Positions 42,859 through 59,765 of a DNA stretch of 64,000 bases are shown in pieces. Source of the stretch: Treponemataceae bacterium (GTDB taxonomy: Bacteria > Spirochaetota > Spirochaetia > Treponematales > Rectinemataceae); assembly GCA_963667725.2 (NCBI GenBank), contig CAXXHO010000005.1, forward strand, positions 1,280,001 through 1,344,000, given 5' to 3'. The translations under genes and the position numbers were made by a program. Numbering within the stretch: the first letter of the stretch is position 1; every line of letters begins with the position of its first letter. The notes under the pieces are model-generated. The model did no database searches. It was not told the DNA's origin and saw only the letters and a program-made list of their open reading frames with translations.

Positions 42859-43924
42859 ACTGCATGACGTCGTCAAGGTTTTCGGGAAGAATACGGTTGT
42901 TCGAAACCTTTCGTTGAACGTGGAAAAAGGCGAATTCGTCTCATTCCTCGGGAGTTCGGGCTGCGGCAAGACGACGACGCTCCGGATGATCGCGGGCTTC
43001 GAAACCCTGACCGAAGGGTCTATCATCCTCGACGGCGTGAACGTGGAACGCACGCCCCCGAACAGGCGGAACCTCGGCATGGTTTTTCAGAGCTACGCCC
43101 TCTTTCCCAACATGAACGTGCGCCACAATATAGGCTTCGCGCTGAAAATCGCCGGCCTTCCGCGGGAAAAGATGGAAAAACGCGTGGACGAAATGCTCGA
43201 TCTCATCAAGATGGGCGAATACGCGAGCCGCTACCCGCATCAGCTCTCGGGCGGCCAGCAGCAGCGCGTCGCCCTCGCCAGGGCTCTGGCAAGGGAACCT
43301 GCCGCTCTCCTCCTCGACGAGCCTCTCTCCGCCCTCGACGCCAAGATACGCGTGCGCCTCCGCGACGACATACGCGATATTCAGCGAAAACTGGGCATCA
43401 CCACCGTCTATGTCACGCACGACCAGGAGGAAGCCCTCTCCATCTCCGATCGCGTCGCCGTCATGAAGGAAGGAAAAATCGAGCAGATCGGAAGCCCTTT
43501 CGAAATCTACAACAAGCCAGCGACGCCCTACGTGGCGGCCTTCATCGGCACGCTCAACCGGCTGCCCGCCCTCGTCATCGATCCCTCGGCCGGAATCGTC
43601 GAGGTCGAAGGACAGAGGATCACGACCGCCTCGCCCATCCAGGCGGCAGGTGGAACCGCGCTCCAGCTGCGCTTGAGGCCCGAAGCCCTCTCCCTCGGGC
43701 CCGGCGACGAATCCTCCAACCGCCTGAAGGGAAACGTGGAAAACGTGAAATTCCTGGGTTCGATCGTGCGGCTTGTCGTACGCGTCGGCGCCCATCGGCT
43801 GTCGATAGACAGCTTCAACGAGCCTCGCCTTGTGCTGCCCGACTTGGGCGAGGAAATCGCCGTTTCCTTCGACAGGGAAGCCTGCGTCCTGGCCGAGCCG
43901 GAGGCGCAGCCGACGAGGTCCTGA
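42845..43924 (+). CDS. ABC transporter ATPase (PotA-like, TOBE domain)
   Basis: GSSGCGKTT, VFQSYALFP, LSGGQQQR, THDQEEA. Confidence 0.92.
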   Translation: MAFLELHDVVKVFGKNTVVRNLSLNVEKGEFVSFLGSSGCGKTTTLRMIAGFETLTEGSIILDGVNVERTPPNRRNLGMVFQSYALFPNMNVRHNIGFALKIAGLPREKMEKRVDEMLDLIKMGEYASRYPHQLSGGQQQRVALARALAREPAALLLDEPLSALDAKIRVRLRDDIRDIQRKLGITTVYVTHDQEEALSISDRVAVMKEGKIEQIGSPFEIYNKPATPYVAAFIGTLNRLPALVIDPSAGIVEVEGQRITTASPIQAAGGTALQLRLRPEALSLGPGDESSNRLKGNVENVKFLGSIVRLVVRVGAHRLSIDSFNEPRLVLPDLGEEIAVSFDREACVLAEPEAQPTRS

Positions 43925-43990
43925 CAACCCCTGACAAATCCTGGCTCGGCGGGCTCCGAACCGTCGGCTGGCTCTTGCGGGAGGAAAATC

Positions 43991-44263
43991 ATGAAAGCCA
44001 TCCATGTCATTGTCGAGGGCGAAGTCCAGGGCGTAGGATTCCGCTACTCCTCGCTCAGGGAGGCGCGAGCTCTCGGCCTCACGGGCTGGGTGCGCAACGC
44101 CGAAGATGGATCGGTGGAGGTTTGGGCCGAAGGCGAAGAGAGTTCCCTCGACGAATTCTCCCTCTGGCTGGAACATGGGCCGGATTACGCGCGCGTCGAG
44201 AAGGTGCGCGTCACCCGGGAAATGGCCCTGGAAATCTACTCTTCCTTCTCAACGATTTCATAA
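43991..44263 (+). CDS. acyP: Acylphosphatase
   Basis: VQGVGFR, GWVRN. Confidence 0.92.
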   Translation: MKAIHVIVEGEVQGVGFRYSSLREARALGLTGWVRNAEDGSVEVWAEGEESSLDEFSLWLEHGPDYARVEKVRVTREMALEIYSSFSTIS

Positions 44264-44306
44264 CATCTGCCTTCATAATATCTGCATACACGGATTTCCT
44301 GTCTTA

Positions 44307-44349
44307 TGTGCGCTGTCGCACAGACTCTCTTCCCACCCCGGATTATTCT
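44307..44349 (+). promoter_or_regulatory. CRP/FNR-type palindrome 1 plus -10 element
   Basis: TGTGCG-ctgt-CGCACA-GAC (44307-44325); TATTCT at 44344-44349. Confidence 0.75.
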
Positions 44350-44386
44350 TCATTCAGTCCTGTGAATAGCGGGGCAAGGGGGCGGT

Positions 44387-44605
44387 ATGAAGAATAATTA
44401 TAAACAAGAGGAAGCGTCATCCATGCAGTACGGAAACAGGGGGAGCCAGACGGGAGATCCGGCGAGACTGTCTCCGTCCATGAGCAGCATGGTGCTGCTC
44501 TCGCGAGGCGGCAATCGCGAAATGAAGGATTCTTGCATTACGCCAAAAGTTATAGAACTCGGCGATGTCGCCGACAGATCCTGCTTCAACGGGCAAGGCC
44601 TGTAA
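44387..44605 (+). CDS. Possible small protein (or part of a long leader)
   Basis: 72-codon ORF right after the predicted promoter; no recognisable motif. Confidence 0.3.
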   Translation: MKNNYKQEEASSMQYGNRGSQTGDPARLSPSMSSMVLLSRGGNREMKDSCITPKVIELGDVADRSCFNGQGL

Positions 44606-44663
44606 AAGACATGCAGGTTTTGCCTGCCGAAATTTCTCCATCATCCAAACCACGGAGGTTTCT

Positions 44664-45191
44664 ATGAAGCGTTTCATTCCCTTATTGATGTTGCTGGCTC
44701 TTCTGCCGGTCGGCGTCTTCGCCCTTGATTTCTACGCCGGCGCCAACGCCTATTATGCCAGCCTGATCCAGCCAGCCGATGTTCAGGCTATCGACACCGC
44801 CAACCTCAACATGGCTGATTTCTCCTTCGGCGGAGAGGCGCGCATCGTCGGCCACCTTCTCTGGGCCAGCGCCATCGGAACTTACACTCCCGCCGACGCC
44901 AATATGCCGCATCGCCTCGATATAATGCTGGACGGCGGTGTCGGCCTCACGCTGGGCATCTTTCGCGCCGGTATCGGAATCGGACCTAACTACGGCATCG
45001 AGATGGGCGACAACGCGGGGAACTACTTCAAGACCGGCGCCAATATGCGCCTCACCGGCGATGTCCTGCTGGGACCTTTCTCGGTTGGATTGAGCTGGAT
45101 CAGCAAAATCGAATTCACCCGCGCATCCTTTGTCGAGGCTTTCGAAAACCCCTATGGCCAGCTTGGCTTGGCGGTTCTCTACAAACTGTAG
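44664..45191 (+). CDS. Predicted outer-membrane beta-barrel protein
   Basis: SD ggagg, signal peptide (VFA-LD), Gly/aromatic alternating strands, C-terminal strand LGLAVLYKL. Confidence 0.65.
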   Translation: MKRFIPLLMLLALLPVGVFALDFYAGANAYYASLIQPADVQAIDTANLNMADFSFGGEARIVGHLLWASAIGTYTPADANMPHRLDIMLDGGVGLTLGIFRAGIGIGPNYGIEMGDNAGNYFKTGANMRLTGDVLLGPFSVGLSWISKIEFTRASFVEAFENPYGQLGLAVLYKL

Positions 45192-45232
45192 GCGGCCGCT
45201 CCCGCCGAAGAGTATTCGGCAAGAAGATAAAG

Positions 45233-45264
45233 AAAGGGCACCGGAGATTTTCCGGTGCCCTTTT
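45233..45264. terminator. Bidirectional terminator between convergent genes
   Basis: aaagggcaccgga-gattt-tccggtgcccttt. Confidence 0.8.
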
Positions 45265-45297
45265 CGTACCTAGGCATACTGTTTTTCTATTGTTTTA

Positions 45298-46377
45298 TTA
45301 CATCGCCGGTTCCGTCACCGCATCGGCATCCAGGGTCACCGCGGTCTGCGCGAGCAGCCTGCCGTTCACCATGGCGCCGGTGTTGACTTCCACCAGGGTT
45401 TTGCACAGGACGATTCCCTTGAAGTCCGAGGTTGTGCCGAGCGTGGTCTGTCCGGCAACCTGCCAGAAAATATTCTTGGGCTGCGCGCCGCCGCTCAGGG
45501 TGACGATAGCTCCGTTGCCCACCGTGAGGTCCTGCGCTATCTGGAAGATCCAGACATCGTTGGCGCCGCCGTTGAGCGTGACGCTGTTGTTTATTAGGAC
45601 TCCCGTTCCCCATACATACAGGCCGGGAACGATAGTCTGTCCGCTGAGATCGCCAGCGTGGAGTTCCGTGGCGTCGGGCAAGGTGCGTCCCGCGGCGTCG
45701 GTGTAGGCGATTTCCATGTCGCCGATGGCCGTCGTCATGTTGGATGGCGTCGGCGGCGTATAATCGGCCGCGTAGATGCTGCCGGTGACATAGGATGATG
45801 TCGAGAATACGTTCGAAGCGTCCATGATGAGGTCAAATCCGGTGATGTAGGTCGCGGCGGCGGGACTCACGCCAATGTCGCCGGTGATCGCCGTCGTTCC
45901 GGTCGTCGATATTCCGGTTTTAGCCAGGATGACGAAGTTGCCCGCGGTGCCGAGATTCACGGGCGACGGACCGGAAGCCAGGTTAACGCCAGTCGTAAAG
46001 CTCCACGCGTACTCCGCTTCGAGGGCATTCCCCGCTACGTCCGTGACTGCCGTGGTGATCTTGGCCGTGTAGACGGTACTGGTGGAAAGATCCATCTCCG
46101 GTACCAGCGTGGCGACGAGATCGACATAGGTGACGGAAGCGGGAACGAGCGTCACGCCCTGGCTCAACGTAAAGGAAAGCGCCGTGATCGTCGACGAGTC
46201 CATCGCTTCGCTGAAGGTCGCGGTGATGCTCCTGTTCCTGGCGACATCGGTCGCCCAGGTGGCCGGCGTCGTCGTATCGACGGTGGGCGGAATGACGTCG
46301 TCATTATTGATGGGACTCTTGCATCCAGCGATGACAAGAATCATTAGCAAAATAGGCAGAAGCCACATTTTTCTCAT
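45298..46377 (-). CDS. DUF3494 ice-binding-like lipoprotein with one Ig-like (Big_5-like) domain
   Basis: IAGC lipobox; ITATFSEAMD Ig domain; VNLGTAGNFVILAKTGIS, PGLYVW, DVWIFQI, NIFWQV, NGRLLAQTAVTLD. Confidence 0.9.
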   Translation of the reverse strand: MRKMWLLPILLMILVIAGCKSPINNDDVIPPTVDTTTPATWATDVARNRSITATFSEAMDSSTITALSFTLSQGVTLVPASVTYVDLVATLVPEMDLSTSTVYTAKITTAVTDVAGNALEAEYAWSFTTGVNLASGPSPVNLGTAGNFVILAKTGISTTGTTAITGDIGVSPAAATYITGFDLIMDASNVFSTSSYVTGSIYAADYTPPTPSNMTTAIGDMEIAYTDAAGRTLPDATELHAGDLSGQTIVPGLYVWGTGVLINNSVTLNGGANDVWIFQIAQDLTVGNGAIVTLSGGAQPKNIFWQVAGQTTLGTTSDFKGIVLCKTLVEVNTGAMVNGRLLAQTAVTLDADAVTEPAM

Positions 46378-46478
46378 AAAAAGCACCTCCTTGATCAGTG
46401 CATAAAAAATTCTAAAAATAGGGTGCGAAGTCCGCCATAATCGTGACAGACACCGCACCCCGCATTCCGAAGCTCAAA

Positions 46479-47558
46479 TTACAGGGCTGGTTCCACGATG
46501 GTATTGGCATCCATAGTGACCGCGGTCTGCGTAAGCAGTCTGCCGTTCACGGTGGCTCCCGCCGCCAGGGTTATCGCGCCTGCCGACATGATTACGCCTT
46601 CCATGTGGGAAGTCGCGGCGAGGGCTACGGCGCCGCCCACCTGCCAGAATATGTTCTTGGGAAGCGCTCCGCCGGTCAGGAGGACCTGAACCGTCGCGGC
46701 TTCCGTGAGCCCGCTGGCGATCTGGAATATCCAGACATCGTCGGCGCCGCCATTGAGGGTGACGTTGGTCGTAATCGACACTCCGGTTCCCCACTTGTAG
46801 AGACCGGGCTCGAGGTTCATGCCGCCGATTTCTCCGGCGCCCAGCTCCGAAGAATTGGGATCGAGTCTGCCGGCCGCGTCATCAAAGGCAGCCTGCATCG
46901 CAAGCACCGCCGTGGTCAGGTTCGTAGGTGTTGGCTCCACGTAATTCGCCGCATAGACATTCCCCGTAACCAAGGCCGAAGTGGCGAAGGTATTCGACAC
47001 ATCCATTATCAAGCCGAAACCAGTCATGGCCGCCGCATCGATGGGGCTCACAGCGATGTCACCGGTGATCATGGTCGCTCCGGTGGTCGTTATTCCCGTC
47101 TTGGCCAGGATCGCGTAATCCCCGGAGGTCCCGAGATCCACCGCAGCCGGACCGGCGGGAGGATTGGCCGTGGTCGTGAAGGTCCATACCTTATCGGCCG
47201 CAAGCGCATTGCCGGCCGCATCGGTGACGCCTGTCGTGATCGTGGCCGTATAGACAGTGCTGGCCGCGAGATCATTAGTAGGGTTGAAGGTCGCTACCTT
47301 GTCCGCATAGCTGACCACGCCCTCGACCGCAGTGACGCCCTGCATTAGGGTGAAGTTCGCCGCTACGATGGTTGCCTCGTCCATGTCTTCGTCGAAGGTG
47401 GCCGTGACATTGCTGTTCCGTTCTACCGCGATCGCGGCGTCCACGGGACTGGTGGAACTGACAGTCGGAGCCGTGAGGTCCTCTTCATCCACAGGATTAC
47501 CGCAGCCGCTCAGCGAAAGGGCTACCATCAGCAGCCCCAAAAACAACATCTTCTTCAT
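46479..47558 (-). CDS. DUF3494 ice-binding-like lipoprotein with one Ig-like domain
   Basis: LSGC lipobox; same DUF3494 motifs; SD aaggaga before ATG 47558 (second SD-led in-frame ATG at 47594). Confidence 0.9.
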   Translation of the reverse strand: MKKMLFLGLLMVALSLSGCGNPVDEEDLTAPTVSSTSPVDAAIAVERNSNVTATFDEDMDEATIVAANFTLMQGVTAVEGVVSYADKVATFNPTNDLAASTVYTATITTGVTDAAGNALAADKVWTFTTTANPPAGPAAVDLGTSGDYAILAKTGITTTGATMITGDIAVSPIDAAAMTGFGLIMDVSNTFATSALVTGNVYAANYVEPTPTNLTTAVLAMQAAFDDAAGRLDPNSSELGAGEIGGMNLEPGLYKWGTGVSITTNVTLNGGADDVWIFQIASGLTEAATVQVLLTGGALPKNIFWQVGGAVALAATSHMEGVIMSAGAITLAAGATVNGRLLTQTAVTMDANTIVEPAL

Positions 47559-47621
47559 AATCGATATCTCCTTGTTTTTCATTCTCTTGTTCATGTTCAA
47601 AAATCCTCCTTCTTATTTGCA

Positions 47622-47725
47622 AGAATACGTACGGAATCCGTTTTGGTCTGTTCGGTAGCGCACACAGTCCCGCGCTGTCTGTGTGTGCTGGCGCACAGAC
47701 GAGGTTGATTCGCGTGAATGATATT
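47622..47725. promoter_or_regulatory. Back-to-back CRP/FNR-type palindromes 2 and 3 (divergent promoters)
   Basis: Minus strand TGTGCG-ctac-CGAACA-GAC (47664-47646) with TATTCT (47627-47622); plus strand TGTGTG-ctgg-CGCACA-GAC (47682-47700) with GATATT (47720-47725). Confidence 0.72.
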
Positions 47726-47789
47726 TATGGGTAGATGGGGAGGATTGCTTCTATATGAATTGTATGTCCGAGAGAAAAAGGAGAAAACA

Positions 47790-50150
47790 ATGAAGAAGAT
47801 TTTAGTATCGATGCTTGTGCTGGTCGCGTTTTTCGCGGTCAGCTGCAAAAGTCCGGTGGCTGAGGATGTTGTCGCGCCCACGGTCGACCTGACGAGCCCT
47901 GCCGATCTCGCTACCAATATAGCGATAACGGCTGATGTGACGGCGACCTTCAGCGAAGCGATGGATTCCGCGACCGTCGTCGCGGCGAACTTTACCGTAA
48001 GCCAGGGGGCTACTCCCGTAGCCGGCACGGTGAGCTATGCCGATGATGTCGCCACCTTCAATCCGACAAGCGATCTCGCGGCGGGAACCGAGTACACGGC
48101 GACGGTCTTGACAGGCGTCAAGGATGTGGCAGGAAACGCGCTGGCCGCCGCCAAAGTATGGACCTTTACGACAGCGGCGCTGGTAGACATCATCGCTCCC
48201 GCGGTGAGCGGAGTCAGCCCGGCCGATTTGGCCGTTGACGTGGCCGTTGTATCGAATGTCACCGCTACCTTCAGCGAAGCCATGGCATCCGGAACGATCA
48301 TCGCCGCGAACTTCACGTTGATGCAGGCGGCAACGCCTATTCCCGGGGTGGTCAGTTACGTGGGCAATATCGCTACCTTCAATCCGGACAGCGATCTGGC
48401 CTTCAACACGATCTACACCGCGACCGTGAAAACGGACGTCACCGATGTGGCCGGCAATCATCTCGCGGCCAACAAGGTATGGACCTTCACGACCGCGGCG
48501 TTCGTGGACAGCATCCCACCCACGGTGAGTCTAGTAAGTCCTGCCGACCTGGCTACCGATGTGGCCACTACATCGAATGTCACCGCCACCTTCAGCGAAG
48601 AAATGACCTCCGGAACGATCGTCGCCGCGAACTTCACGCTGATGCAGGGGAGCACGCCTGTTGCGGGCGCGGTCAGCTATCTGGGCAATGTCGCCACCTT
48701 CAATCCGGACAGCAATCTGGCCTACAACACGATGTACACCGCAACCGTGAAAACGGACGTCACCGATCTGACCGGCAATCATCTCGCGGCCAACAAGGTG
48801 TGGACTTTTACGACAGCCGCATTCGTGGACATCATCGCTCCCGCGGTGAGTTTAGTCAGCCCAGCGGACCTTGCCGTCAGTGTGGCCATCACATCGAATG
48901 TCACCGCTACCTTCAGCGAAGCGATGACCTCCGGAACGATCATCGCCGCGAACTTCACGTTGATGCAGGCGGCTACGCCCATTCCCGGCGCGGTCAGCTA
49001 TCTGGGCAACGTCGCCACGTTCAATCCTGACAGCGATCTGGCCTTCAACACGATCTACACCGCGACCGTGAAAACGGACGTCACCGATGTAGCCGGCAAT
49101 CATCTCGCGGTCAATAAGGTATGGACCTTCACGACTGCCGCGTTTGTGGACATCATTCCACCCACGGTGAGTTTAGTAAGTCCTGCCGACCTGGCCGTCG
49201 ACGTGGCGATCGCGTCGAATGTCACCGCCACCTTCAATGAAGCCATGGCTTCCGGAACGATCATCGCCGCGAACTTCACGCTGATGCAGGCAGGCATGCC
49301 TATTGCAGGCGCGGTCAGCTATCTGGGCAATGTCGCTACCTTCAATCCTGACAGCAATCTGGCTTACAGCACCATCTATACCGCAACCGTGAAAACGGAC
49401 ATCACCGATGTGGCCGGCAATCATCTCGCGGCCAACAAGGTGTGGACCTTCACGACCGTAGCCGCCCCAGTGGCGGGTCCCGCGGCCGTAGACCTTGGAA
49501 CGGCGGGCAATTACGTAATCCTGGCGAAAACCGCCATCAGCACCGTTCCAACCTCAGCGGTTACGGGCGACATCGGGCTGAGCCCGGCCGCCGCGAGCTT
49601 CATCACGGGATTCTCGCTTGTAGCGGACGCCACGAATGTGTTCTCGACAGCGAGTCAGCTTACCGGAAGGGCTTACGCCGCCAATTATACCGATCCCACC
49701 CCCTCGAACCTGACCACCGCCGTGAGCGACATGGAAGCGGCGTATGCCGATGCCGCGGGGCGGCCGACGCCTGATTTCCTGAATCATGGAGCCGGAGAGA
49801 TAGGCGGATTGATCCTTGTGCCTGGACTCTATAAATGGACCACAAACCTCTTGATCACCACCAACGTCACGCTGAACGGCGGTGCCAACGATGTCTGGAT
49901 CTTCCAGATATCGGGCGGCATCACTCAGGCTTCCGGCGCGAACGTCAATCTGACCGGCGGCGCTTTAGCCAAGAATATCTTCTGGCAGGCGGCTGATGAT
50001 GTCACGCTCGGCACGACAGCCCATATGGAAGGCATCGTGCTTTGCGCCACGGCCATCCACCTCGGCACCGGCGCTTCCGCCAATGGCAGGCTGCTGGCTC
50101 AGACCGCCGTCACGATAGACGGCAGCGCTGTAGTCGAACCCATACTGTAG
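47790..50150 (+). CDS. DUF3494 ice-binding-like lipoprotein with five tandem Ig-like domains
   Basis: AVSC lipobox; five 107-aa repeats; C-terminal DUF3494 motifs. Confidence 0.92.
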   Translation: MKKILVSMLVLVAFFAVSCKSPVAEDVVAPTVDLTSPADLATNIAITADVTATFSEAMDSATVVAANFTVSQGATPVAGTVSYADDVATFNPTSDLAAGTEYTATVLTGVKDVAGNALAAAKVWTFTTAALVDIIAPAVSGVSPADLAVDVAVVSNVTATFSEAMASGTIIAANFTLMQAATPIPGVVSYVGNIATFNPDSDLAFNTIYTATVKTDVTDVAGNHLAANKVWTFTTAAFVDSIPPTVSLVSPADLATDVATTSNVTATFSEEMTSGTIVAANFTLMQGSTPVAGAVSYLGNVATFNPDSNLAYNTMYTATVKTDVTDLTGNHLAANKVWTFTTAAFVDIIAPAVSLVSPADLAVSVAITSNVTATFSEAMTSGTIIAANFTLMQAATPIPGAVSYLGNVATFNPDSDLAFNTIYTATVKTDVTDVAGNHLAVNKVWTFTTAAFVDIIPPTVSLVSPADLAVDVAIASNVTATFNEAMASGTIIAANFTLMQAGMPIAGAVSYLGNVATFNPDSNLAYSTIYTATVKTDITDVAGNHLAANKVWTFTTVAAPVAGPAAVDLGTAGNYVILAKTAISTVPTSAVTGDIGLSPAAASFITGFSLVADATNVFSTASQLTGRAYAANYTDPTPSNLTTAVSDMEAAYADAAGRPTPDFLNHGAGEIGGLILVPGLYKWTTNLLITTNVTLNGGANDVWIFQISGGITQASGANVNLTGGALAKNIFWQAADDVTLGTTAHMEGIVLCATAIHLGTGASANGRLLAQTAVTIDGSAVVEPIL
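47865..49469 (+). repeat. Five 321-bp intragenic tandem repeats (Ig-like domains)
   Basis: Units begin at 47865, 48186, 48507, 48828 and 49149. Confidence 0.9.
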
Positions 50151-50188
50151 ACGAATCGATAGATTCGTCCGCGATGTGAAACTAATGT

Positions 50189-50233
50189 AAAAAAGAAGGG
50201 GCTGCCCGGGAAGTTTTCCCAGGCAGCCCCTTC
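50189..50233. terminator. Terminator between the DUF3494 gene and catalase (T tract on the minus strand)
   Basis: A6-gaaggggctgcc...ggcagccccttc. Confidence 0.75.
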
Positions 50234-50286
50234 AATTATTTCTATTGATCAACGTATCGCAATCGACCTAATGATCGGATTCTTGC

Positions 50287-51795
50287 CTACCGGCTGGTTG
50301 CCTTGACACGTTCTTCCTGAGACATGGCCGCAAGCCTCTTCACTTCGGCGCAGTCCAGCTTAAGCCCTTGGGCGACGCGTTCCCCGTACCCGACATCTAC
50401 CTTGTAGAACAGGGCCGCCTGACGCAGCTGAATGCGCGTTTGCGCCTTGCCCAGGTGGGATACGATGTTGCCGATGAGATGGTCGCGGTCCATGTCGGAC
50501 ATGACATTTCGATACAGATCTCCCGCCTGGACAAAGTCCACGTCTCCGGTTTCGTAGGCATGCCGCGTCGCCTTCCCGGCAACGGTAAAGGGCGGCACTG
50601 AGAATGACGGATCGGGCGCGGGACCGCCGACGCTGTTGGGCCAGTAGTTGGGGTTTCCGCCGCCGTTCGCGCCCGATCGCATGGGGCCATCGCGCTGATA
50701 GCCGCTATCCATGGAAGCTTTAGGCGCATTGACGGGCAGGAGATTGAAGTTCGGGCCCAGCCTGTGCCTCTGCGTATCGGGATAGCTGAACAGGCGTCCC
50801 TGCAGGAGCCTGTCAGGCGATGCCCCGATTCCCGGCACGAAATTGCCTGGCGCGAAGGCGATCTGCTCCACTTCGGCGAAATAATTGGAAGGGTTGCGGT
50901 TGAGCACCATGCGTCCAAGGGGAAGAAGCGGATAATCTCCATGAGGCCAGACTTTCGTTATATCGAAAGGATCGAATCGATAGGTTTCCGCTTCCGCCGG
51001 CGTCATGATCTGCACGAACACTTGCCACCCGGGGTACTCCCCGCGCTGTATGCTGTCGTAGAGATCCCTCGTCGCGTGGTCGGGATCGATACCGGCCAGA
51101 CGGGCGGCTTCGTCGCGCGTGAGATTCCTGATCCCCTGTTCCGTCACGAAATGCGTCTTGACCCAGCAGTAGCAGCCTTTTTCGTCGTACCACATGAAGG
51201 TATGGCTACTGAAGCCGTGCATGTGACGGTAATCGAGAGGGATGCCGCGGTCGGAGAAAAGAATTGTCACTTGATGGATGGACTCCGGCGTAAGCGAGAG
51301 AAAATCCCAGAACATATCGGGGTCTTTCAGATTGGTCGCGGGATTGCGCTTTTGGGTATGGATGAAATCCGGGAATTTTATGGCGTCGCGAATGAAGAAC
51401 ACCGGCGTATTGTTGCCTACCAGATCGTAGTTGCCTTCTTCCGTATAGAATTTGACGGCGAAACCGCGGGGATCGCGGTCCGCGTCGGCTGAACCTTTTT
51501 CGCCGCCCACCTGTGAGAATCGCGCGAAAATTTCCGTGCGCTTTCCTAGACTGGAGAGAAATTTTGCGCGCGTATATTTCGTCATGTCGTGAGTAACCTC
51601 GAAGTATCCGCTCGCTCCCGCGCCTTTCGCGTGCACAACCCTTTCGGGCACGCGTTCCCTGTCGAAATGCGCCAGTTTCTCCATGAGATGCGTGTCCTGG
51701 ATGAGCGTGGGGCCATCGGCTCCCGCCGTCATCGAGTTCAGGTCATTTTCGACAGGTCTCCCCGTATTCGTCGTTAAAATATTTTTTTTCGTGAT
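50287..51795 (-). CDS. katA: Monofunctional heme catalase (small subunit); inferred start is ATC at 51795, first ATG at 51732
   Basis: [34 protein letters not shown]; conserved LTT..G.PV..D..S segment lies upstream of the first ATG. Confidence 0.95.
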
Positions 51796-51840
51796 TATTG
51801 TATCTCCTGCCCATCTGCCGCCATTTTCGACCGATGGGCT

Positions 51841-52287
51841 TTACTTGCCCGAAGTCAATGAGCGGTAGATCAGCTGCATCAGTTCCTCGAAAAGGTGGAA
51901 ATATCCGGAATTGTCTTTCTTGTAGGCCGTTACCGTATCGTTGATGCCCGATCCCATTTTTTCCATAACGTCGCTGGCCAGGGTCAAGCTGCCTTTTGCC
52001 GTGCTGGCGACATGCTCGACTTCCTGAATGATCGCGGGAAATGAAACCTTCAATTGGGAGGTTGTTTCTTTGAGATCGCCGCTTATCTGTTCGAAATCCC
52101 CGATTATGGCGGGCACTCTTCTGAAGGAATGCTTGATGGAATCTTTATTGATTTCCACAAGCGGGCTGATGATTCCCACCATCTTTTTAATGTTCAGGAG
52201 TATGGGTACGAGGATGGCGCCAAGTAGAATTCCCATCATGCATACGAGGAAAATCATCAAATCAGGCAACGTGAATTGTATTGTCAT
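51841..52287 (-). CDS. DUF948/YtxG-like general stress membrane protein
   Basis: N-terminal TM followed by amphipathic coiled coil; adjacent to a YtxH gene. Confidence 0.6.
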   Translation of the reverse strand: MTIQFTLPDLMIFLVCMMGILLGAILVPILLNIKKMVGIISPLVEINKDSIKHSFRRVPAIIGDFEQISGDLKETTSQLKVSFPAIIQEVEHVASTAKGSLTLASDVMEKMGSGINDTVTAYKKDNSGYFHLFEELMQLIYRSLTSGK

Positions 52288-52302
52288 GGTTTTAGCCTCG
52301 CT

Positions 52303-52632
52303 CTACGCTGAAGCCGTTCCGCTTCTCTTTTTCCTGGCCGCCGGTTTCGGTTGCAAGGTGCTTTTCAATTCCTGAGCCGCGTGGGCAGTTGTTTTCTTTA
52401 CGATTTCCGCCTTGTGCTTTACTTTTTCCCTGATGGTCTCCAAGGCATCTTCCGCTTTCTTTTTCAGCTCGTCCCTGGTTTCTTTTCCTGATTTCGGCGC
52501 GTAGAGAATTCCTTTCAGCAGCCCAATCGTGGCGGCTATACCCATTCCCAGCGCGAAATTTATGGAGGCCTTTCTCCGGTCCTCATCCCTTTTCTTCCTG
52601 TTTACCATATCCAGCATAGTATTGAAAAACAT
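52303..52632 (-). CDS. YtxH-domain protein
   Basis: GILYAPKSGKETRDELK signature; SD ggagg. Confidence 0.85.
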   Translation of the reverse strand: MFFNTMLDMVNRKKRDEDRRKASINFALGMGIAATIGLLKGILYAPKSGKETRDELKKKAEDALETIREKVKHKAEIVKKTTAHAAQELKSTLQPKPAARKKRSGTASA

Positions 52633-52735
52633 ACAAATTCCTCCGCAGAAAATTCTGCTGATCTCGAGTCGTTCTGCCGGTCGTTTTGGACCGGTTAACC
52701 TCAACTCGGGCGAGATAAAATCGGCGACCGCGCGG

Positions 52736-52912
52736 TTACATATTCTTTTTGATTTCTGCCTTGGCGTCGCCGAGTCCTGCCTGAACGGCCCCTTTGATTT
52801 TTTTGGCCTTTCCTTTTTTCTCCATTTTTTTATCGCCGACGACTATGCCTATCGCCTGCTTGACCTTGCCTTTCACTTCGTCGATGCGTCCCTTGATCTG
52901 ATCATTATTCAT
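52736..52912 (-). CDS. csbD: CsbD-family stress protein (58 aa, absent from the ORF track)
   Basis: Hand translation MNNDQIKGRIDEVKGKVKQAIGIVVGDKKMEKKGKAKKIKGAVQAGLGDAKAEIKKNM; SD aggaga. Confidence 0.88.
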   Translation of the reverse strand: MNNDQIKGRIDEVKGKVKQAIGIVVGDKKMEKKGKAKKIKGAVQAGLGDAKAEIKKNM

Positions 52913-52984
52913 TCTTGTCTCCTGTAATGAAGTCTTCTGGAAAGGGTCTCATTTATCAATGCTCCCATTCTTTTGCCTGATCTA

Positions 52985-53102
52985 AAGGTACTTTGATGAC
53001 CTTGATGGGTCTGTGCGGCAGCACACATAGGGCAGTGCAAAGGAAGGCCGGACAGTCTATGTGTGCTGCCGCACAGACCGCTTCGGGCTTGGGACCTATG
53101 CT
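52985..53102. promoter_or_regulatory. Back-to-back CRP/FNR-type palindromes 4 and 5 (divergent promoters)
   Basis: Both read TGTGTG-ctgc-CGCACA-GAC (53027-53009 minus; 53060-53078 plus); -10 TACCTT (52990-52985) and TATGCT (53097-53102). Confidence 0.8.
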
Positions 53103-53124
53103 CTTACGTATAAGGAGAAGTATC

Positions 53125-53319
53125 GTGAATACACTGAACGCAAAAAGCGCTATGTATGGGCCGATAGGCGAGTTCGGGAGCAAGTTGGATTTTTTCCGCG
53201 ATGTTGACATTTTTTCCGAAGAGAGAAAAGTTGAAGAGCTTCTCGATAAAGTGGAGAAGCGAATCGGAAGGGCGAAAGAAAACGTTGTTGGATTCATCAA
53301 TACAACGGTTATAAGGTGA
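53125..53319 (+). CDS. Small hypothetical protein
   Basis: SD aaggag plus GTG; GTGA overlap with the next gene. Confidence 0.55.
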   Translation: MNTLNAKSAMYGPIGEFGSKLDFFRDVDIFSEERKVEELLDKVEKRIGRAKENVVGFINTTVIR

Positions 53320-53771
53320 TCAATGTCATTGGGCTTAATAATCGCATAACTTTACATAAATACACGAAGGCCGCGAAAGCCATAAAGTCCGAACTTGCCG
53401 AAAAATTCCCCGGCATCTCCTTTTCGATAAAATCGAAATCGTTCGCGAACGGAGACAATGTGACGATAGATTGGACAGGCGGCCCGACGAGCGATGCCGT
53501 CGAGTCGGTGGTGATTAAATACCGATACGGAACGTTCGACGCATCGAAAAATCTTTACCTCTACGACAGTCGCGACGATGCCATTCCCCAGGCCCAGTAC
53601 GTGATGGTTTCCCACCATCACAGCGATTCTTCGCAAAAAAAGGCCAAGCAGGAAATCGCCGATGGCTTCAATGTGGACATGAATGACAGCCAGGCGGTTT
53701 TCGCCGCCTTCGGCAACTGGCCTCAGCCTTTGATCCGCGCGAAGCTCGAACATCGCAGTCCGTTCAATTAG
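53316..53771 (+). CDS. LPD29 (large polyvalent protein-associated domain 29)-like protein
   Basis: IKSELAEKFPGISFSIKS..WTGGPT..YGTFD pattern recognised as LPD29-like. Confidence 0.65.
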   Translation: MINVIGLNNRITLHKYTKAAKAIKSELAEKFPGISFSIKSKSFANGDNVTIDWTGGPTSDAVESVVIKYRYGTFDASKNLYLYDSRDDAIPQAQYVMVSHHHSDSSQKKAKQEIADGFNVDMNDSQAVFAAFGNWPQPLIRAKLEHRSPFN

Positions 53772-53906
53772 GCCGAATGTAATAAATAGAATCCAGACTT
53801 TGTTTTTACCGCTCCTCTCAGTATTTTTAGGCATACTTCATATGCGCTGCATGGTGGCGTATATTCTATTTGAAGGATGAATCCAAAACCTGAGAAGGAG
53901 TTTTTC

Positions 53907-54707
53907 ATGGAACTAGGACTCAAGAATAAAATACTCTTTGCTTCGGCTTCTACCGATGGCTTGGGGCTGGGCATAGCGGAAAACGCTCTCGCCGAAGGCG
54001 CTTTCGTGTTTTTAGGCGGCAGATCGCAGGAGAGGCTCGATGCGGCGTTGAAACGCCTGGTTCCTTTGGCGGCGGCATCGGGCGGGCGGTCCGCCGGCAC
54101 TGTCCTGGACATGTCCTCGGCCGGTTCCATCGAAGCCTGGGTCGCGGCGGGAATGGCCGCGATGGGGGAGCCGGACGCGCTGCTGGTGAACGCCGGCGGA
54201 CCGCCCCCCGGAGACTTCGAAACGCTGGCGGGCGATGAGCCCTGGCAGGCGGCCTTCAACCTCACCCTCATGTCTTCCGTGCGGCTCATCCGCGCTGTCC
54301 TGCCCTCCCTCAAGGCGAAGGGCGGTTCGATTCTCACGATAACCTCGAGTTCGGTGAAGGAGCCTTGGCCTGGGCTGATTCTTTCAGGCGTCATGCGCTC
54401 GGGAGTCGCCAGCCTCGTTAAATCGCTGTCGATCGAGCTCGCGCCTTACGGCATCCGCGTCAACAACATAGCGCCGGGCAATATCATGACGGGCCGCCTC
54501 GATAGGCTCATCGCCGCCGAGGCCAAGGGCGCCGGAATCTCCAGCGACGAGCGGCGGGCCCAGCGTCAGGCCAATATCCCCATGGGACGCATCGGGGAAG
54601 TGGAGGAGTTCGGCAGGGCGGGGGCTTTCCTTCTGTCGCCGGCAGCATCCTACCTGAACGGCCAGACCCTCCTCGTGGACGGGGGCGCTTCCAAGTTCCT
54701 GTACTGA
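53907..54707 (+). CDS. SDR-family oxidoreductase
   Basis: ASTDGLG, NAGGPPPG, RVNNIAPG, VDGG. Confidence 0.9.
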   Translation: MELGLKNKILFASASTDGLGLGIAENALAEGAFVFLGGRSQERLDAALKRLVPLAAASGGRSAGTVLDMSSAGSIEAWVAAGMAAMGEPDALLVNAGGPPPGDFETLAGDEPWQAAFNLTLMSSVRLIRAVLPSLKAKGGSILTITSSSVKEPWPGLILSGVMRSGVASLVKSLSIELAPYGIRVNNIAPGNIMTGRLDRLIAAEAKGAGISSDERRAQRQANIPMGRIGEVEEFGRAGAFLLSPAASYLNGQTLLVDGGASKFLY

Positions 54708-56865: not shown

Positions 56866-56950
56866 GGAGCGGTGTCCGAGGGGTTTAAGGAGGCGGTCTT
56901 GAAAACCGTTGAACCGCGAGGTTCCGGGGGTTCGAATCCCCCCTGCTCCG
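56866..56950 (+). tRNA. tRNA-Ser(TGA)
   Basis: Anticodon arm gcggt-CT-TGA-AA-accgt, long variable arm, GTTCGAATC. Confidence 0.95.
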
Positions 56951-56969
56951 GATACTGCGATATTTTGTT

Positions 56970-57057
56970 GGAGAGGTGCGAGAGCGGCCGAATCGGGCTC
57001 CCTGCTAAGGAGTTGTACCTCTAAAGGGTACCGAGGGTTCGAATCCCTCCCTCTCCG
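56970..57057 (+). tRNA. tRNA-Ser(GCT)
   Basis: gctcc-CT-GCT-AA-ggagt, long variable arm. Confidence 0.95.
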
Positions 57058-57063
57058 CTACGC

Positions 57064-57137
57064 GAGGCTATAGCTCAGCTGGATAGAGCTTCAGATTGCG
57101 GATCTGAAGGTCGGAGGTTCGAATCCTCTTAGCCTCA
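57064..57137 (+). tRNA. tRNA-Arg(GCG)
   Basis: tcaga-TT-GCG-GA-tctga; acceptor stem gaggcta/tagcctc. Confidence 0.95.
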
Positions 57138-57147
57138 TTCTTCGTTT

Positions 57148-57233
57148 GGAGAGATGCGAGAGCGGCTGAATCGGGCGGTCTCGAAAACCGTTAAACCTTT
57201 TAGGTTTCGAGGGTTCGAATCCCTCTCTCTCCG
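57148..57233 (+). tRNA. tRNA-Ser(CGA)
   Basis: gcggt-CT-CGA-AA-accgt, long variable arm. Confidence 0.95.
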
Positions 57234-57320
57234 CAAGCCGCGCTTCTTCGTCGCTCCAACGTCGATAAAGCAGGCGTTTTCAGTTTTTCGTTTCTGTTTT
57301 CGTTTCTTGTTTTTCTTTTT

Positions 57321-57407
57321 GGAGAGATGACCGAGCGGCCGAAGGTGCGCGATTGGAAGTCGCGTGTACCCGTAAGGGTACCTAGGGTTCAAATCCCTAT
57401 CTCTCCG
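57321..57407 (+). tRNA. tRNA-Ser(GGA)
   Basis: cgcga-TT-GGA-AG-tcgcg, long variable arm. Confidence 0.95.
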
Positions 57408-57422
57408 TAGCATTTAGAGCGC

Positions 57423-57524
57423 AAGAAGCCAGGCACTGTGCTCGTAACCACTGCGGAACCCGCCAGGTCCGGAAGGAAGCAACGGTACGTGGAAGGTGCG
57501 GTGCCGCAGAGCGCCTGGCTTCTT
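57423..57524 (+). ncRNA. ffs: Signal recognition particle RNA (small bacterial type)
   Basis: CCAGGTCCGGAAGGAAGCAACGG domain IV; closing stem aagaagccagg/cctggcttctt; lies upstream of dnaX. Confidence 0.92.
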
Positions 57525-57572
57525 GCGCTTCAAGTGCTTTACCCTTCCACGCCTCCATGCTATTTTGATGCC

Positions 57573-59765
57573 ATGCCTTATGAAGTCACCGCGGCCAGAA
57601 AACGCCCCCAATCATTCGAACAGCTCGCTGGCCAGGAGTTCGTCGCCGCCACCCTCGAGAAGTCCCTCGAGACCGGCAGGATAGCCCACGCCTATCTTTT
57701 TTCGGGCCCAAGGGGCTGCGGCAAGACGAGCACGGCGCGCATCCTCGCGAAGGCGCTCAACTGCGAAAAAGGTCCCACGTCTGAGCCCTGCGGCGTCTGC
57801 GATTCCTGCAGGTCGATAACGGCCGGTTCGTCCCTCGACGTGATCGAGATCGACGGCGCCTCGAACACCTCGGTTGAGAACGTGCGCCAGATAAAGGATG
57901 AGGTTCTTTTCCCGCCCAATTCCAGCCGCTATAAAATATATATCATCGACGAAGTCCACATGCTCTCGACAAGCGCCTTCAACGCCCTCCTCAAGACGAT
58001 CGAGGAGCCGCCGCCCTACGTGATTTTCATGTTCGCCACGACGGAGCAGCACAAGGTGCCGGCCACGATCAAGAGCCGCTGCCAGCAGTTCACCTTCAGG
58101 CTCGTATCCTCTGACGTGGTCGTGCGGCTGCTCGCCGCCGCCGCCGCCGATCTCGGCGTGACCGCCGAACCCGAGGCCCTGCTCTGGATCACCCGCGAAT
58201 CGGGCGGCTCCGTGCGCGACGCCTACACCCTCTTCGACCAGGTAGTCTCCTTCGCCGAAGGCCACATCACGGCGGCCCTCATCCGCGAAAAGCTCGGCCT
58301 CGTAGGCCAGGACAGGATGAACGCGCTCTTCGGGCTTTTCGTCGCGGGCGATACGGCGGGCTCCCTTTCGGCCTTGGACTCGATTCTCGGCGGCGGCGTT
58401 TCGCCTGAGCAGTTTGTGGCCGACACCGTCGAATACTGCAGGGCTCTTCTTCTTATCAAGCATGGCCTCACGCGCGAGAGCATCCTCGGCGCCCCGCTTT
58501 CCTCCTTCGATCTTTCGATCACCGAGGCCTTGTCGGGCGAACGCATCGAGCGCGTCCTCTCGACCTTCCTGTCCGCGTACCGGAACCTGAAAGAGTCCAT
58601 CGATCCCCGCTACGAACTGGACCTCGCCGTGGCGAAGGCTTCCCATATCGGCAGTTATGTGCCCCCCTCCGATCTCGTCAGGGCGGTGGGCACCCTCAAG
58701 CGCTATCTCGAGAAGAACGCCCCGATGACAACGGGCTCCGCTTCAGCGGCCCCCGCTTCGTCGGCCGCCCGGGCTCCGGCTCCAGCCCCGGAACAGATCC
58801 GGACGGCGGCCGCCCCCATGGCATCGGCCGCCCCCGCGGCATCGCCCACCTCTTCGGTCCCGGTCCAGCCCGCTCCTTCGGTCGCCGCCCAGCCCGCCGT
58901 TTCATTCGGGGGCATCGATCCCTCAAAGTTGCCGGAACTCAAGAAAATTCTCGTCGCCGATATAAAGAAGAACAACGTGCTTCTCGCCACGGCCCTGGAC
59001 AAGAGCCGTTCCTGGCATCTCAAGGGGCAGACGCTTTCCATCTCGGTGACGAAACAGATGGACTGTGACCTCCTCAGGCGATTCCTCGCCATCATCGCCG
59101 AGGTGCTGGCCGTGAGAGTGGGCTCTCCCCAGAAGATCGAAGTGACGCTGGCGGCGGAGGATATTCCCGAGGAGAGCCAAGGCCAAGGTGATTCCCCTTT
59201 TGATTCCCCCGGCGCGGAGGCCGGGTTCGCGTCTCAGGGAATCGATGTAGCTCGGGACGTCGACGGTGCCTCAGGAGCCTCTAGAGCCCCCGAAACCTCC
59301 GGGCGCGCCGAAAGCGACGCCCGCTTGCCGGGATCCTTCAACGAGCGGCCGCGGGGAGATCGGGGAGACCGGCAAGACCGGCAGGAAAACAGGCAGGCTC
59401 GAGGACAGCAGCCTAAGCCCGATTCCGGCAGAGGCCAGGCCAACCCCGTGAATGTACCGCAGGTGAGTCTTCCCGAAAGGGAGGCGATCGGCATGGTCGA
59501 GCGCCTTTTTAAGGGAAATCTCGCGGGCTATTCGCATGCCGCGCAAGGTGCGGCGTCAAGCTCGACGGCGTCAAGCTCGACGTCGTCAGATTCGCCGGCG
59601 CAAAGCCCGACGGCGCCAGGTTTGGCGGCGTCAGGCTCGATCCCCTCAAGCTCGGCGCCACGGAGACCCATCGAACGGGGCCCGACGGAAGAAGACGCTG
59701 AAATGGAAGACGACAGGGCCGCTACCTATAGTCCCGATATCGACGAAAACGAAACATCAGAATAA
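57573..59765 (+). CDS. dnaX: DNA polymerase III subunit gamma/tau
   Basis: GPRGCGKTS, EIDGASN, IIDEVHML, SRCQ; long low-complexity C-terminus. Confidence 0.95.
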   Translation: MPYEVTAARKRPQSFEQLAGQEFVAATLEKSLETGRIAHAYLFSGPRGCGKTSTARILAKALNCEKGPTSEPCGVCDSCRSITAGSSLDVIEIDGASNTSVENVRQIKDEVLFPPNSSRYKIYIIDEVHMLSTSAFNALLKTIEEPPPYVIFMFATTEQHKVPATIKSRCQQFTFRLVSSDVVVRLLAAAAADLGVTAEPEALLWITRESGGSVRDAYTLFDQVVSFAEGHITAALIREKLGLVGQDRMNALFGLFVAGDTAGSLSALDSILGGGVSPEQFVADTVEYCRALLLIKHGLTRESILGAPLSSFDLSITEALSGERIERVLSTFLSAYRNLKESIDPRYELDLAVAKASHIGSYVPPSDLVRAVGTLKRYLEKNAPMTTGSASAAPASSAARAPAPAPEQIRTAAAPMASAAPAASPTSSVPVQPAPSVAAQPAVSFGGIDPSKLPELKKILVADIKKNNVLLATALDKSRSWHLKGQTLSISVTKQMDCDLLRRFLAIIAEVLAVRVGSPQKIEVTLAAEDIPEESQGQGDSPFDSPGAEAGFASQGIDVARDVDGASGASRAPETSGRAESDARLPGSFNERPRGDRGDRQDRQENRQARGQQPKPDSGRGQANPVNVPQVSLPEREAIGMVERLFKGNLAGYSHAAQGAASSSTASSSTSSDSPAQSPTAPGLAASGSIPSSSAPRRPIERGPTEEDAEMEDDRAATYSPDIDENETSE

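Follow-up and report, generated by a model that had tools for sequence, protein, structure and literature searches.

A conserved palindromic box and a Crp/Fnr branch that probably govern surface and general-stress genes in a Rectinemataceae spirochete

CRP and FNR of Escherichia coli activate class II promoters from sites centered at -41.5. We analyzed a 64,000-nucleotide stretch of contig CAXXHO010000005.1 from a Treponemataceae bacterium (assembly GCA_963667725.2), called the window below, in which five oriented palindromes, or boxes, each precede a transcription unit of a single gene block. About 18 such palindromes in the genome probably bind an uncharacterized dimer belonging to the Crp/Fnr family, which would activate surface and general-stress genes together. 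The system resembles E. coli CRP and FNR in the fold of the candidate regulator, the TGT-N10-ACA spacing of its half-sites, the center at -41.5 from the predicted start and the overlap with the -35 element. It differs in the box, TGTNYG-N4-CGNACA with a conserved inner CG rather than TGTGA-N6-TCACA or TTGAT-N4-ATCAA, and in the candidate, which has the helix residues R-E-G-V-T-E, no cAMP-pocket Glu or Arg, no N-terminal cysteines and at most 20% identity.

Four described regulators were considered and set aside. The cAMP receptor, CRP proper, was rejected because its pocket residues are gone, the recognition helix reads GVRREGVTEA and the box has C/T at position 5 and G at position 6. FNR was excluded by the missing N-terminal cysteine cluster and by a box other than TTGAT-N4-ATCAA, and NtcA by an NCBIfam equivalog score of 25 bits against a cut-off of 245. 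Cyanobacterial NtcA and actinobacterial GlxR and Mycobacterium tuberculosis CRP are nevertheless the best sequence and fold matches among solved structures; the cAMP-pocket residues of GlxR are replaced in the candidate. The targets CsbD, YtxH, catalase, DUF5670, BON, ferritin-like proteins, Usp and a PLD-type synthase recall sigma-B- and RpoS-type stress regulons, which differ in using a dedicated sigma factor where we propose a Crp-type activator at sigma-70-like promoters. For CRP proper, the cited portion of PMC3590769 gives a recognition helix of the RExxR type. RedB of Rhodobacter capsulatus belongs to a recently characterized, formerly unstudied CRP/FNR subgroup and was set apart by its non-palindromic AT-rich 12-mer motif, as given in part of PMC9603854; the sequences were not compared.

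Group C of the alphaproteobacterial CRP/FNR proteins, described as 116 uncharacterized proteins (Dufour et al. 2010, PMC2908626, in part), is the nearest named set. Three presumed members, matched to locus tags of the published table by plasmid position only, align with the candidate at 26-33% and have the motifs RWLL..DR and L.VRR.. in common with it. One presumed member gives an hhalign E-value of 3e-40, but the three sit on long branches outside the clade and differ in having no C154, C231 or C233. One of the three has a weak box 70 bp upstream that faces away; catalase and ferritin-like genes are among the neighbors. Predicted logos are shown for some of the groups in Figure 2B of the same paper, and one related to our box may therefore have been published already. 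Our literature search found no paper on this Crp branch or box; its coverage of subscription journals was thin and some queries were weak.

Five boxes with a fixed promoter geometry

The five palindromes are real: an exact-match search for TGTGYG-N4-CGMACA found all of them at the places and on the strands where the original prediction had put them. Box 1 (44305..44325, +) consists of TA, a 16-bp core (44307-44322, an exact match on both strands) and a GAC tail; TATTCT follows at 44344-44349, with a predicted start near 44356. Its 21-mer is identical in two genomes of the same genus, G201 and G202. Box 2 (47646..47666, -; core 47649-47664) has TATTCT at 47627-47622 and a predicted start near 47615. 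Box 3 (47680..47700, +; core 47682-47697) has GATATT at 47720-47725, which reads CATATT in G201 and G202, and a predicted start near 47731-47732. Box 4 (53009..53029, -; core 53012-53027) is followed by TACCTT at 52990-52985 (start near 52978), and box 5 (53058..53078, +; core 53060-53075) by TATGCT at 53097-53102 (start near 53109). Read towards the gene, their consensus is T-[A/G]-TGTGYG-CT-N2-CGMACA-GAC. As had been claimed, the GAC tail faces the gene in all five, and a TAnnnT hexamer starts 18 nt past the tail, 29.5 bp from the palindrome center, in four; the GATATT of box 3 starts at 19 nt. The window holds no other exact match and one match with a single mismatch (60353), in keeping with the earlier view that no convincing further copy is present. 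With up to two mismatches there are 22 window matches against a shuffled mean of 11.6, a modest excess equaled in 1 of 100 shuffles.

Placing TAnnnT at -12 to -7 arithmetically puts the core at -49 to -34, its center at -41.5 and the tail at -33 to -31; relative to the -10 hexamer, the class II position is thus occupied in the four window sites with TAnnnT at 18 nt. At a 17-bp spacer the -35 hexamer reads CAGACN. Its GAC matches positions 3-5 of TTGACA, the sigma-70 -35 consensus, which is the likely reason why the tail points towards the gene. A plain sigma-70 consensus scan detected none of the five box promoters, as expected because the -35 is degenerate.

We examined the tail with a symmetric 16-bp matrix that is blind to orientation; in 98 loci belonging to other genomes it yielded 238 distinct sites. 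A -10 was present on 98 of 152 GAC- or GAT-tailed sides and on 65 of 324 other sides; the corresponding odds ratio of 7 is descriptive only, because related genomes are not independent. The A of the tail is kept on both sides (95% promoter side, 80% other), and G (77% vs 31%) and C (55% vs 26%) go with the promoter side. From these patterns we infer a palindromic operator of 20 bp, T-N-TGTNYG-N4-CGNACA-N-A, that shares bases with a partial -35. The strict orientation and spacing would also suit an alternative sigma factor whose promoter has ACAGAC at -35 and TAnnnT at -10, and CsbD, YtxH, catalase and DUF5670 are typical of sigma-B-type regulons. We consider this very unlikely, given that the conserved 20-bp palindrome extends 16 bp upstream of the -35, that a single box can carry a tail and a -10 on each side (e.g. 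L012), and that presence of the box follows the Crp gene described below (a co-occurring sigma factor was not searched for).

The boxes are spread over the genome. Across the 4.22-Mb genome, a matrix trained on the five window sites only, and blind to the -10, gave 17 matches at 18.4 bits or more: the five in the window and 12 outside. TAnnnT lies 18 nt after the tail in 9 of these 12 and at 19 nt in 2 more, compared with 1.7% of random positions. A thirteenth outside site (C5:840239, 15.5 bits) was added by hand for its -10 and position, and two matches of 16-17 bits without a -10 were excluded. With a refitted matrix, 18 genome sites score above 20 bits (0, 0 and 0 in three locally shuffled genomes), scores that are inflated because the 18 sites are the training set. 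The block had been described as a self-contained island; with 13 of 18 sites outside the window, that description does not hold, and the regulon is genome-wide.

The outside targets comprise a DUF3494 lipoprotein and, at C5:839-842 kb, broken copies of such genes; two barrel-like proteins and DUF5670; a run of RNB, alpha-beta hydrolase, superoxide dismutase (SOD) and flavodoxin genes; two kinases, one of the CHASE3 type, which has a REC-HD partner, and one of the REC-PAS type; and small genes for lipoproteins or membrane proteins. The second SOD gene of the genome is without a box. Could the boxes instead be scattered repeats, or scars of recombination, that regulate nothing? Rearrangement of the region between congeners speaks for this idea. 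All 18 boxes, however, stand shortly upstream of open reading frames (ORFs) or gene remnants, their flanks are unrelated while the -10 spacing is kept, and a search of window positions 43900-54000 found no Rfam family at gathering level. The spacing result largely refutes this idea, which we regard as extremely improbable.

At two outside sites, C3:1242662 (+) and C3:1050689 (+), a perfect TTGACA stands on the side of the box that faces away from the tail, at a distance of about 23 nt; at the first it precedes a Crp gene, and the second copy may be the leftover of one.

A Crp branch that accompanies the box

The genome (G000) has four genes that pass the HTH_Crp_2 cut-off. Two are paralogs that are 81% identical, C5:842312-843067 and C3:1242765-1243508; both stand back to back with a box and both lie outside the window. 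The original prediction of a Crp/Fnr-family activator with class II spacing, encoded elsewhere, is thus supported by candidate Crp genes that track the box across relatives. Pfam places the candidate in the Crp/Fnr superfamily (PF00027, 4.5e-8; PF13545, 2.6e-16). A Crp fold is predicted, with a local distance difference test score (pLDDT) of 90 and a best template modeling score of about 0.73 to M. tuberculosis CRP and GlxR (at most 20% identity, E about 1e-13); sequence and fold comparison with solved structures gave no close structure for the branch. The recognition helix GVRREGVTEA occurs in 181 of 250 sequences. In the C3 paralog, which is nearest to the island copy of G201 (88%), K replaces E in this helix, a change unique among the 250, and that protein may have altered or lost its specificity. 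The branch is large: at least 8000 candidates, all of the 8000 scored, pass E 1e-30. In a quick tree, all 24 rows labeled as spirochete group with 8 other proteins, at least 2 of them non-spirochete (support 93, not starred), and we claim no direction of transfer.

Box and Crp branch occur together in spirochetes. The branch is present in 6 of 40 relatives. Among 35 of these (G201-G235), the strict box pattern is found in all 6 carriers and in 1 of 29 non-carriers, there as a degenerate match; it is absent from the remaining 5 of the 40. In a class-level sample of 200 genomes, 11 have a full branch member and one a partial match. The strict pattern, searched in 80 of the 200, is present in 11 of 12 carriers against 9 of 68 others. 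Some of these nine have simple accounts: G050, with a box and no full member, has a Crp fragment at a contig end, and the matches in G023, G030 and G006, which have no -10, seem to be accidental. Neither of the remaining Crp genes of the genome follows the box: the first occurs in 16 of 35 relatives, 10 of them boxless, and the second in 7 of 35, of which just 1 has a box.

The pairing extends beyond spirochetes. Beta- and gammaproteobacteria as well as Acidobacteria have Crp homologs with 58-72% identity. Applied to 98 loci of other genomes (1.29 Mb), the matrix gave 318 matches, compared with 4.3 in shuffles; at least one box matched in 83 of the 98 loci, and none in four loci of distant Crp genes. 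The 18-nt distance to TAnnnT recurs in the sites of spirochetes (30 of 45), Acidobacteria (28 of 42) and Proteobacteria (61 of 162); on the opposite side it is seen in 1, 0 and 15, respectively. In 52 of the 78 named loci, which come from three phyla, the Crp gene has a box no more than 330 bp upstream. Sites that have both a -10 and an ORF number 163, and the genes behind them cluster mainly as Crp (25), DUF3494 (8), CsbD (7), lone receivers (5) and BON (4), counts that are slightly inflated as some loci were fetched twice. Pfam searches of 56 of the 97 cluster representatives add DUF5670, DUF3185, DUF3096, PRC-barrel, a PLD-type synthase, ferritin-like proteins and Usp. The same regulator and box in three phyla speak against the impression that the system is peculiar to one organism.

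Two further readings bear on how the Crp protein relates to the box. The same protein could bind and repress by blocking the -35 region: operator and -35 hexamer overlap, and in 36 of the 52 loci the box in its best orientation faces away from the Crp gene, so that the site could repress crp and at the same time serve the divergent unit. For repressor sites a position fixed to a single base is unusual, and centers at -41.5 are the established class II pattern. The fixed center together with a degenerate -35 across three phyla follows that activator pattern, so we judge repression quite unlikely. Alternatively, the box might be bound by another regulator that travels with the island, either a response regulator or a Crp of a different kind, with the Crp branch as a fellow passenger. 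Good boxes in G039 and G019, where no branch member was detected, and two kinases behind boxes in this genome speak for it. On the other side, the REC-PAS kinase has no Pfam DNA-binding domain, neither of the two other Crp genes tracks the box, and boxes lie just upstream of the Crp gene in the 52 loci mentioned above. We hold this alternative to be unlikely as well.

Several observations weigh against activation by the Crp branch as we propose it. Matches to the strict pattern persist in the 9 of 68 class-level genomes without a detected branch member; among them, G039 (98% complete) and G019 stand out by good boxes that are followed by a -10, and two alignments found no branch member in either. 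G060, 1 of the 12 carriers, has Crp and no strict match, and 15 of the 98 loci give no match over 12 bits. Related genomes are not independent cases, and the box could share an island with Crp, and move with it, but be bound by a different protein. In this genome, one DUF3494 paralog (C5:1019837) and two barrel paralogs have no box. Finally, DUF3494 is found in 9 of 80 spirochete genomes, 6 of 18 Crp carriers and 3 of 62 others; its presence in only 6 of 18 carriers means that the surface module is not a core part. DUF3494 is a lineage addition and not the regulon core.

In G039, a single box (locus L139, C7:704461-704482) has tails and -10s on both sides. It faces an ATP synthase beta-like gene, identified by eye from its translation, and a small gene family that is also behind boxes in G160 and G196.

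Genes of the block and history of the island

The first gene behind box 1 is a 72-amino-acid ORF (44387..44605, +) that was missing from the earlier gene list and that stays in frame with third-position changes across 5 loci. It has a conserved C-x-T-P-x-V-I-E-L-G...C-[FY]-N stretch, perhaps reminiscent of leader peptides of ribosomally made peptides, and no Pfam or Atlas match. A predicted outer-membrane beta-barrel of 175 amino acids (44664..45191, +) follows. Its label comes from Atlas look-alikes only (0.96-0.97, with a recognition value below threshold), and it has no Pfam match. A terminator-like hairpin from a hairpin scan (45233..45263) separates it from the convergent unit, which encodes two predicted lipoproteins of 359 amino acids, each with Big_5 and DUF3494 (ice-binding-like) domains (45298..46377, -, with a lipobox-like Cys; 46479..47558, -). 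A third predicted lipoprotein (47790..50150, +; 786 amino acids) has DUF3494 and five Big_5 repeats of 107 amino acids; there are two repeats in G202 (465 amino acids) and several in the G220 copy, and stalk length thus differs between strains. PF11999 (DUF3494) scores 235-261 bits in the window proteins, and one of the three, run against NCBIfam IBP_CFB, scored 222 of 400 bits, under the cut-off.

A second terminator-like hairpin (50195..50233) lies before the next convergent unit, which contains genes for catalase (50287..51792, -), a 148-amino-acid membrane-anchored protein in the ytxG/DUF948 position (51841..52287, -), a YtxH-like protein (52303..52626, -; Pfam 6e-15) and a CsbD-like protein (52736..52912, -; Pfam 1e-13). 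The catalase start codon (51792-51790) is ACG here and, behind a ribosome-binding sequence, in G220, and ATG in G202; either a non-standard start or the next in-frame ATG, at 51732, is used. On the other side of the last box pair, a 64-amino-acid ORF and an LPD29 gene (53125..53771, +; Pfam 6e-12) are likely passengers under box 5. Pfam bore out the earlier labels for the three Big_5 and DUF3494 proteins, catalase, YtxH, CsbD and LPD29; the DUF948 label was not confirmed, as the 148-amino-acid protein gave no DUF948 match.

G201 and G202 carry the same block at 87-92% identity. In both, a fourth DUF3494 gene with its own hairpin stands behind box 5, on about 1.2 kb that is missing here. The likely deletion junction is at 53103..53116 (+), and both ends of the missing segment carry a GGAG-type ribosome-binding sequence. 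Contigs from four runs of one sample bridge the junction without a gap, although this may be the source sample and so not independent. LPD29 had been taken as a native target; by this comparison it likely came under box 5 by deletion of the fourth DUF3494 gene. In G201 a Crp gene lies between acyP and the copy of box 1, divergent from the box, and G202 and this genome have no Crp there. Crp is near barrel and DUF3494 genes in G205 and G220 too, which makes loss from the island the likelier direction; this island copy likely lost its Crp gene. In G220, csbD, ytxH, the 148-amino-acid gene, RNB, hydrolase and catalase form a single run behind one box, whereas here the RNB run is on another contig with its own box. 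Genes that relocate and keep a box are as expected of a real regulon. The nearest named homolog loci (82-93% identity) belong to Rectinemataceae, Treponemataceae or unplaced Spirochaetes, consistent with the predicted spirochete host.

A second, decayed cluster (C5:838900-843100, L159) contains broken DUF3494 genes, an intact one, the Crp gene, five boxes and a short remnant resembling the barrel C-terminus; most of this stretch is absent from G202. Within the window, a two-mismatch match to the motif at 57495 is probably unrelated. It falls in 56900-57620, where two tRNA-like stretches and a signal recognition particle-like stretch were seen, with no dedicated scan, upstream of dnaX.

Proposed mechanism, signal and meaning

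We propose that a Crp/Fnr dimer sits at the class II position and from there recruits RNA polymerase with sigma-70. Region 4 of sigma-70 would read two bases of the tail, G and C, as -33 and -31, and the TT of the -35 hexamer would be replaced by the CA of the operator. This replacement would leave the promoter weak without the activator and firing only towards the tail. The binder would be the product of C5:842312-843067 rather than the C3 paralog, given the unique E-to-K change in the recognition helix of the latter. The output would be a general-stress, stationary-phase-type program, to which the spirochete lineage would have added DUF3494 lipoproteins and beta-barrels.

The signal is probably neither cAMP nor an Fe-S cluster of the FNR type. 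The phosphate-binding cassettes of cAMP receptors use a Glu and an Arg to bind cAMP. In an alignment with cAMP-binding GlxR neither is kept: GELS corresponds to GIAL or GVAL, and the Arg of PRTS is lost. The first Cys of the candidate is residue 154, leaving no N-terminal cysteines for an FNR-type [4Fe-4S] cluster. C154, H158, C231 and C233 are kept in 124, 123, 123 and 123 of 128 locus-derived sequences. Sensing of redox or metal status at this conserved Cys3-His set is our preferred guess, held with somewhat less than even confidence, and input from the kinases of the regulon is an alternative.

The mechanism itself is textbook; the branch is uncharacterized. The box and promoter geometry make the regulon predictable in many genomes, and culturable carriers of the branch exist in Methylobacillus, Nitrosomonas and Polynucleobacter. 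Small genes of unknown function (CsbD, DUF5670, DUF3185 and DUF3096) and non-polar DUF3494 proteins become tied to one signal. Possibly, though we regard the whole as doubtful, the branch is a portable general-stress switch without a dedicated sigma factor, using one operator and geometry in Spirochaetota, Pseudomonadota and Acidobacteriota. Its Cys3-His redox or metal sensor would then be new to the family, it would capture lineage genes by seeding boxes, and the "ice-binding" DUF3494 lipoproteins would be stress-induced surface adhesins with variable stalks.

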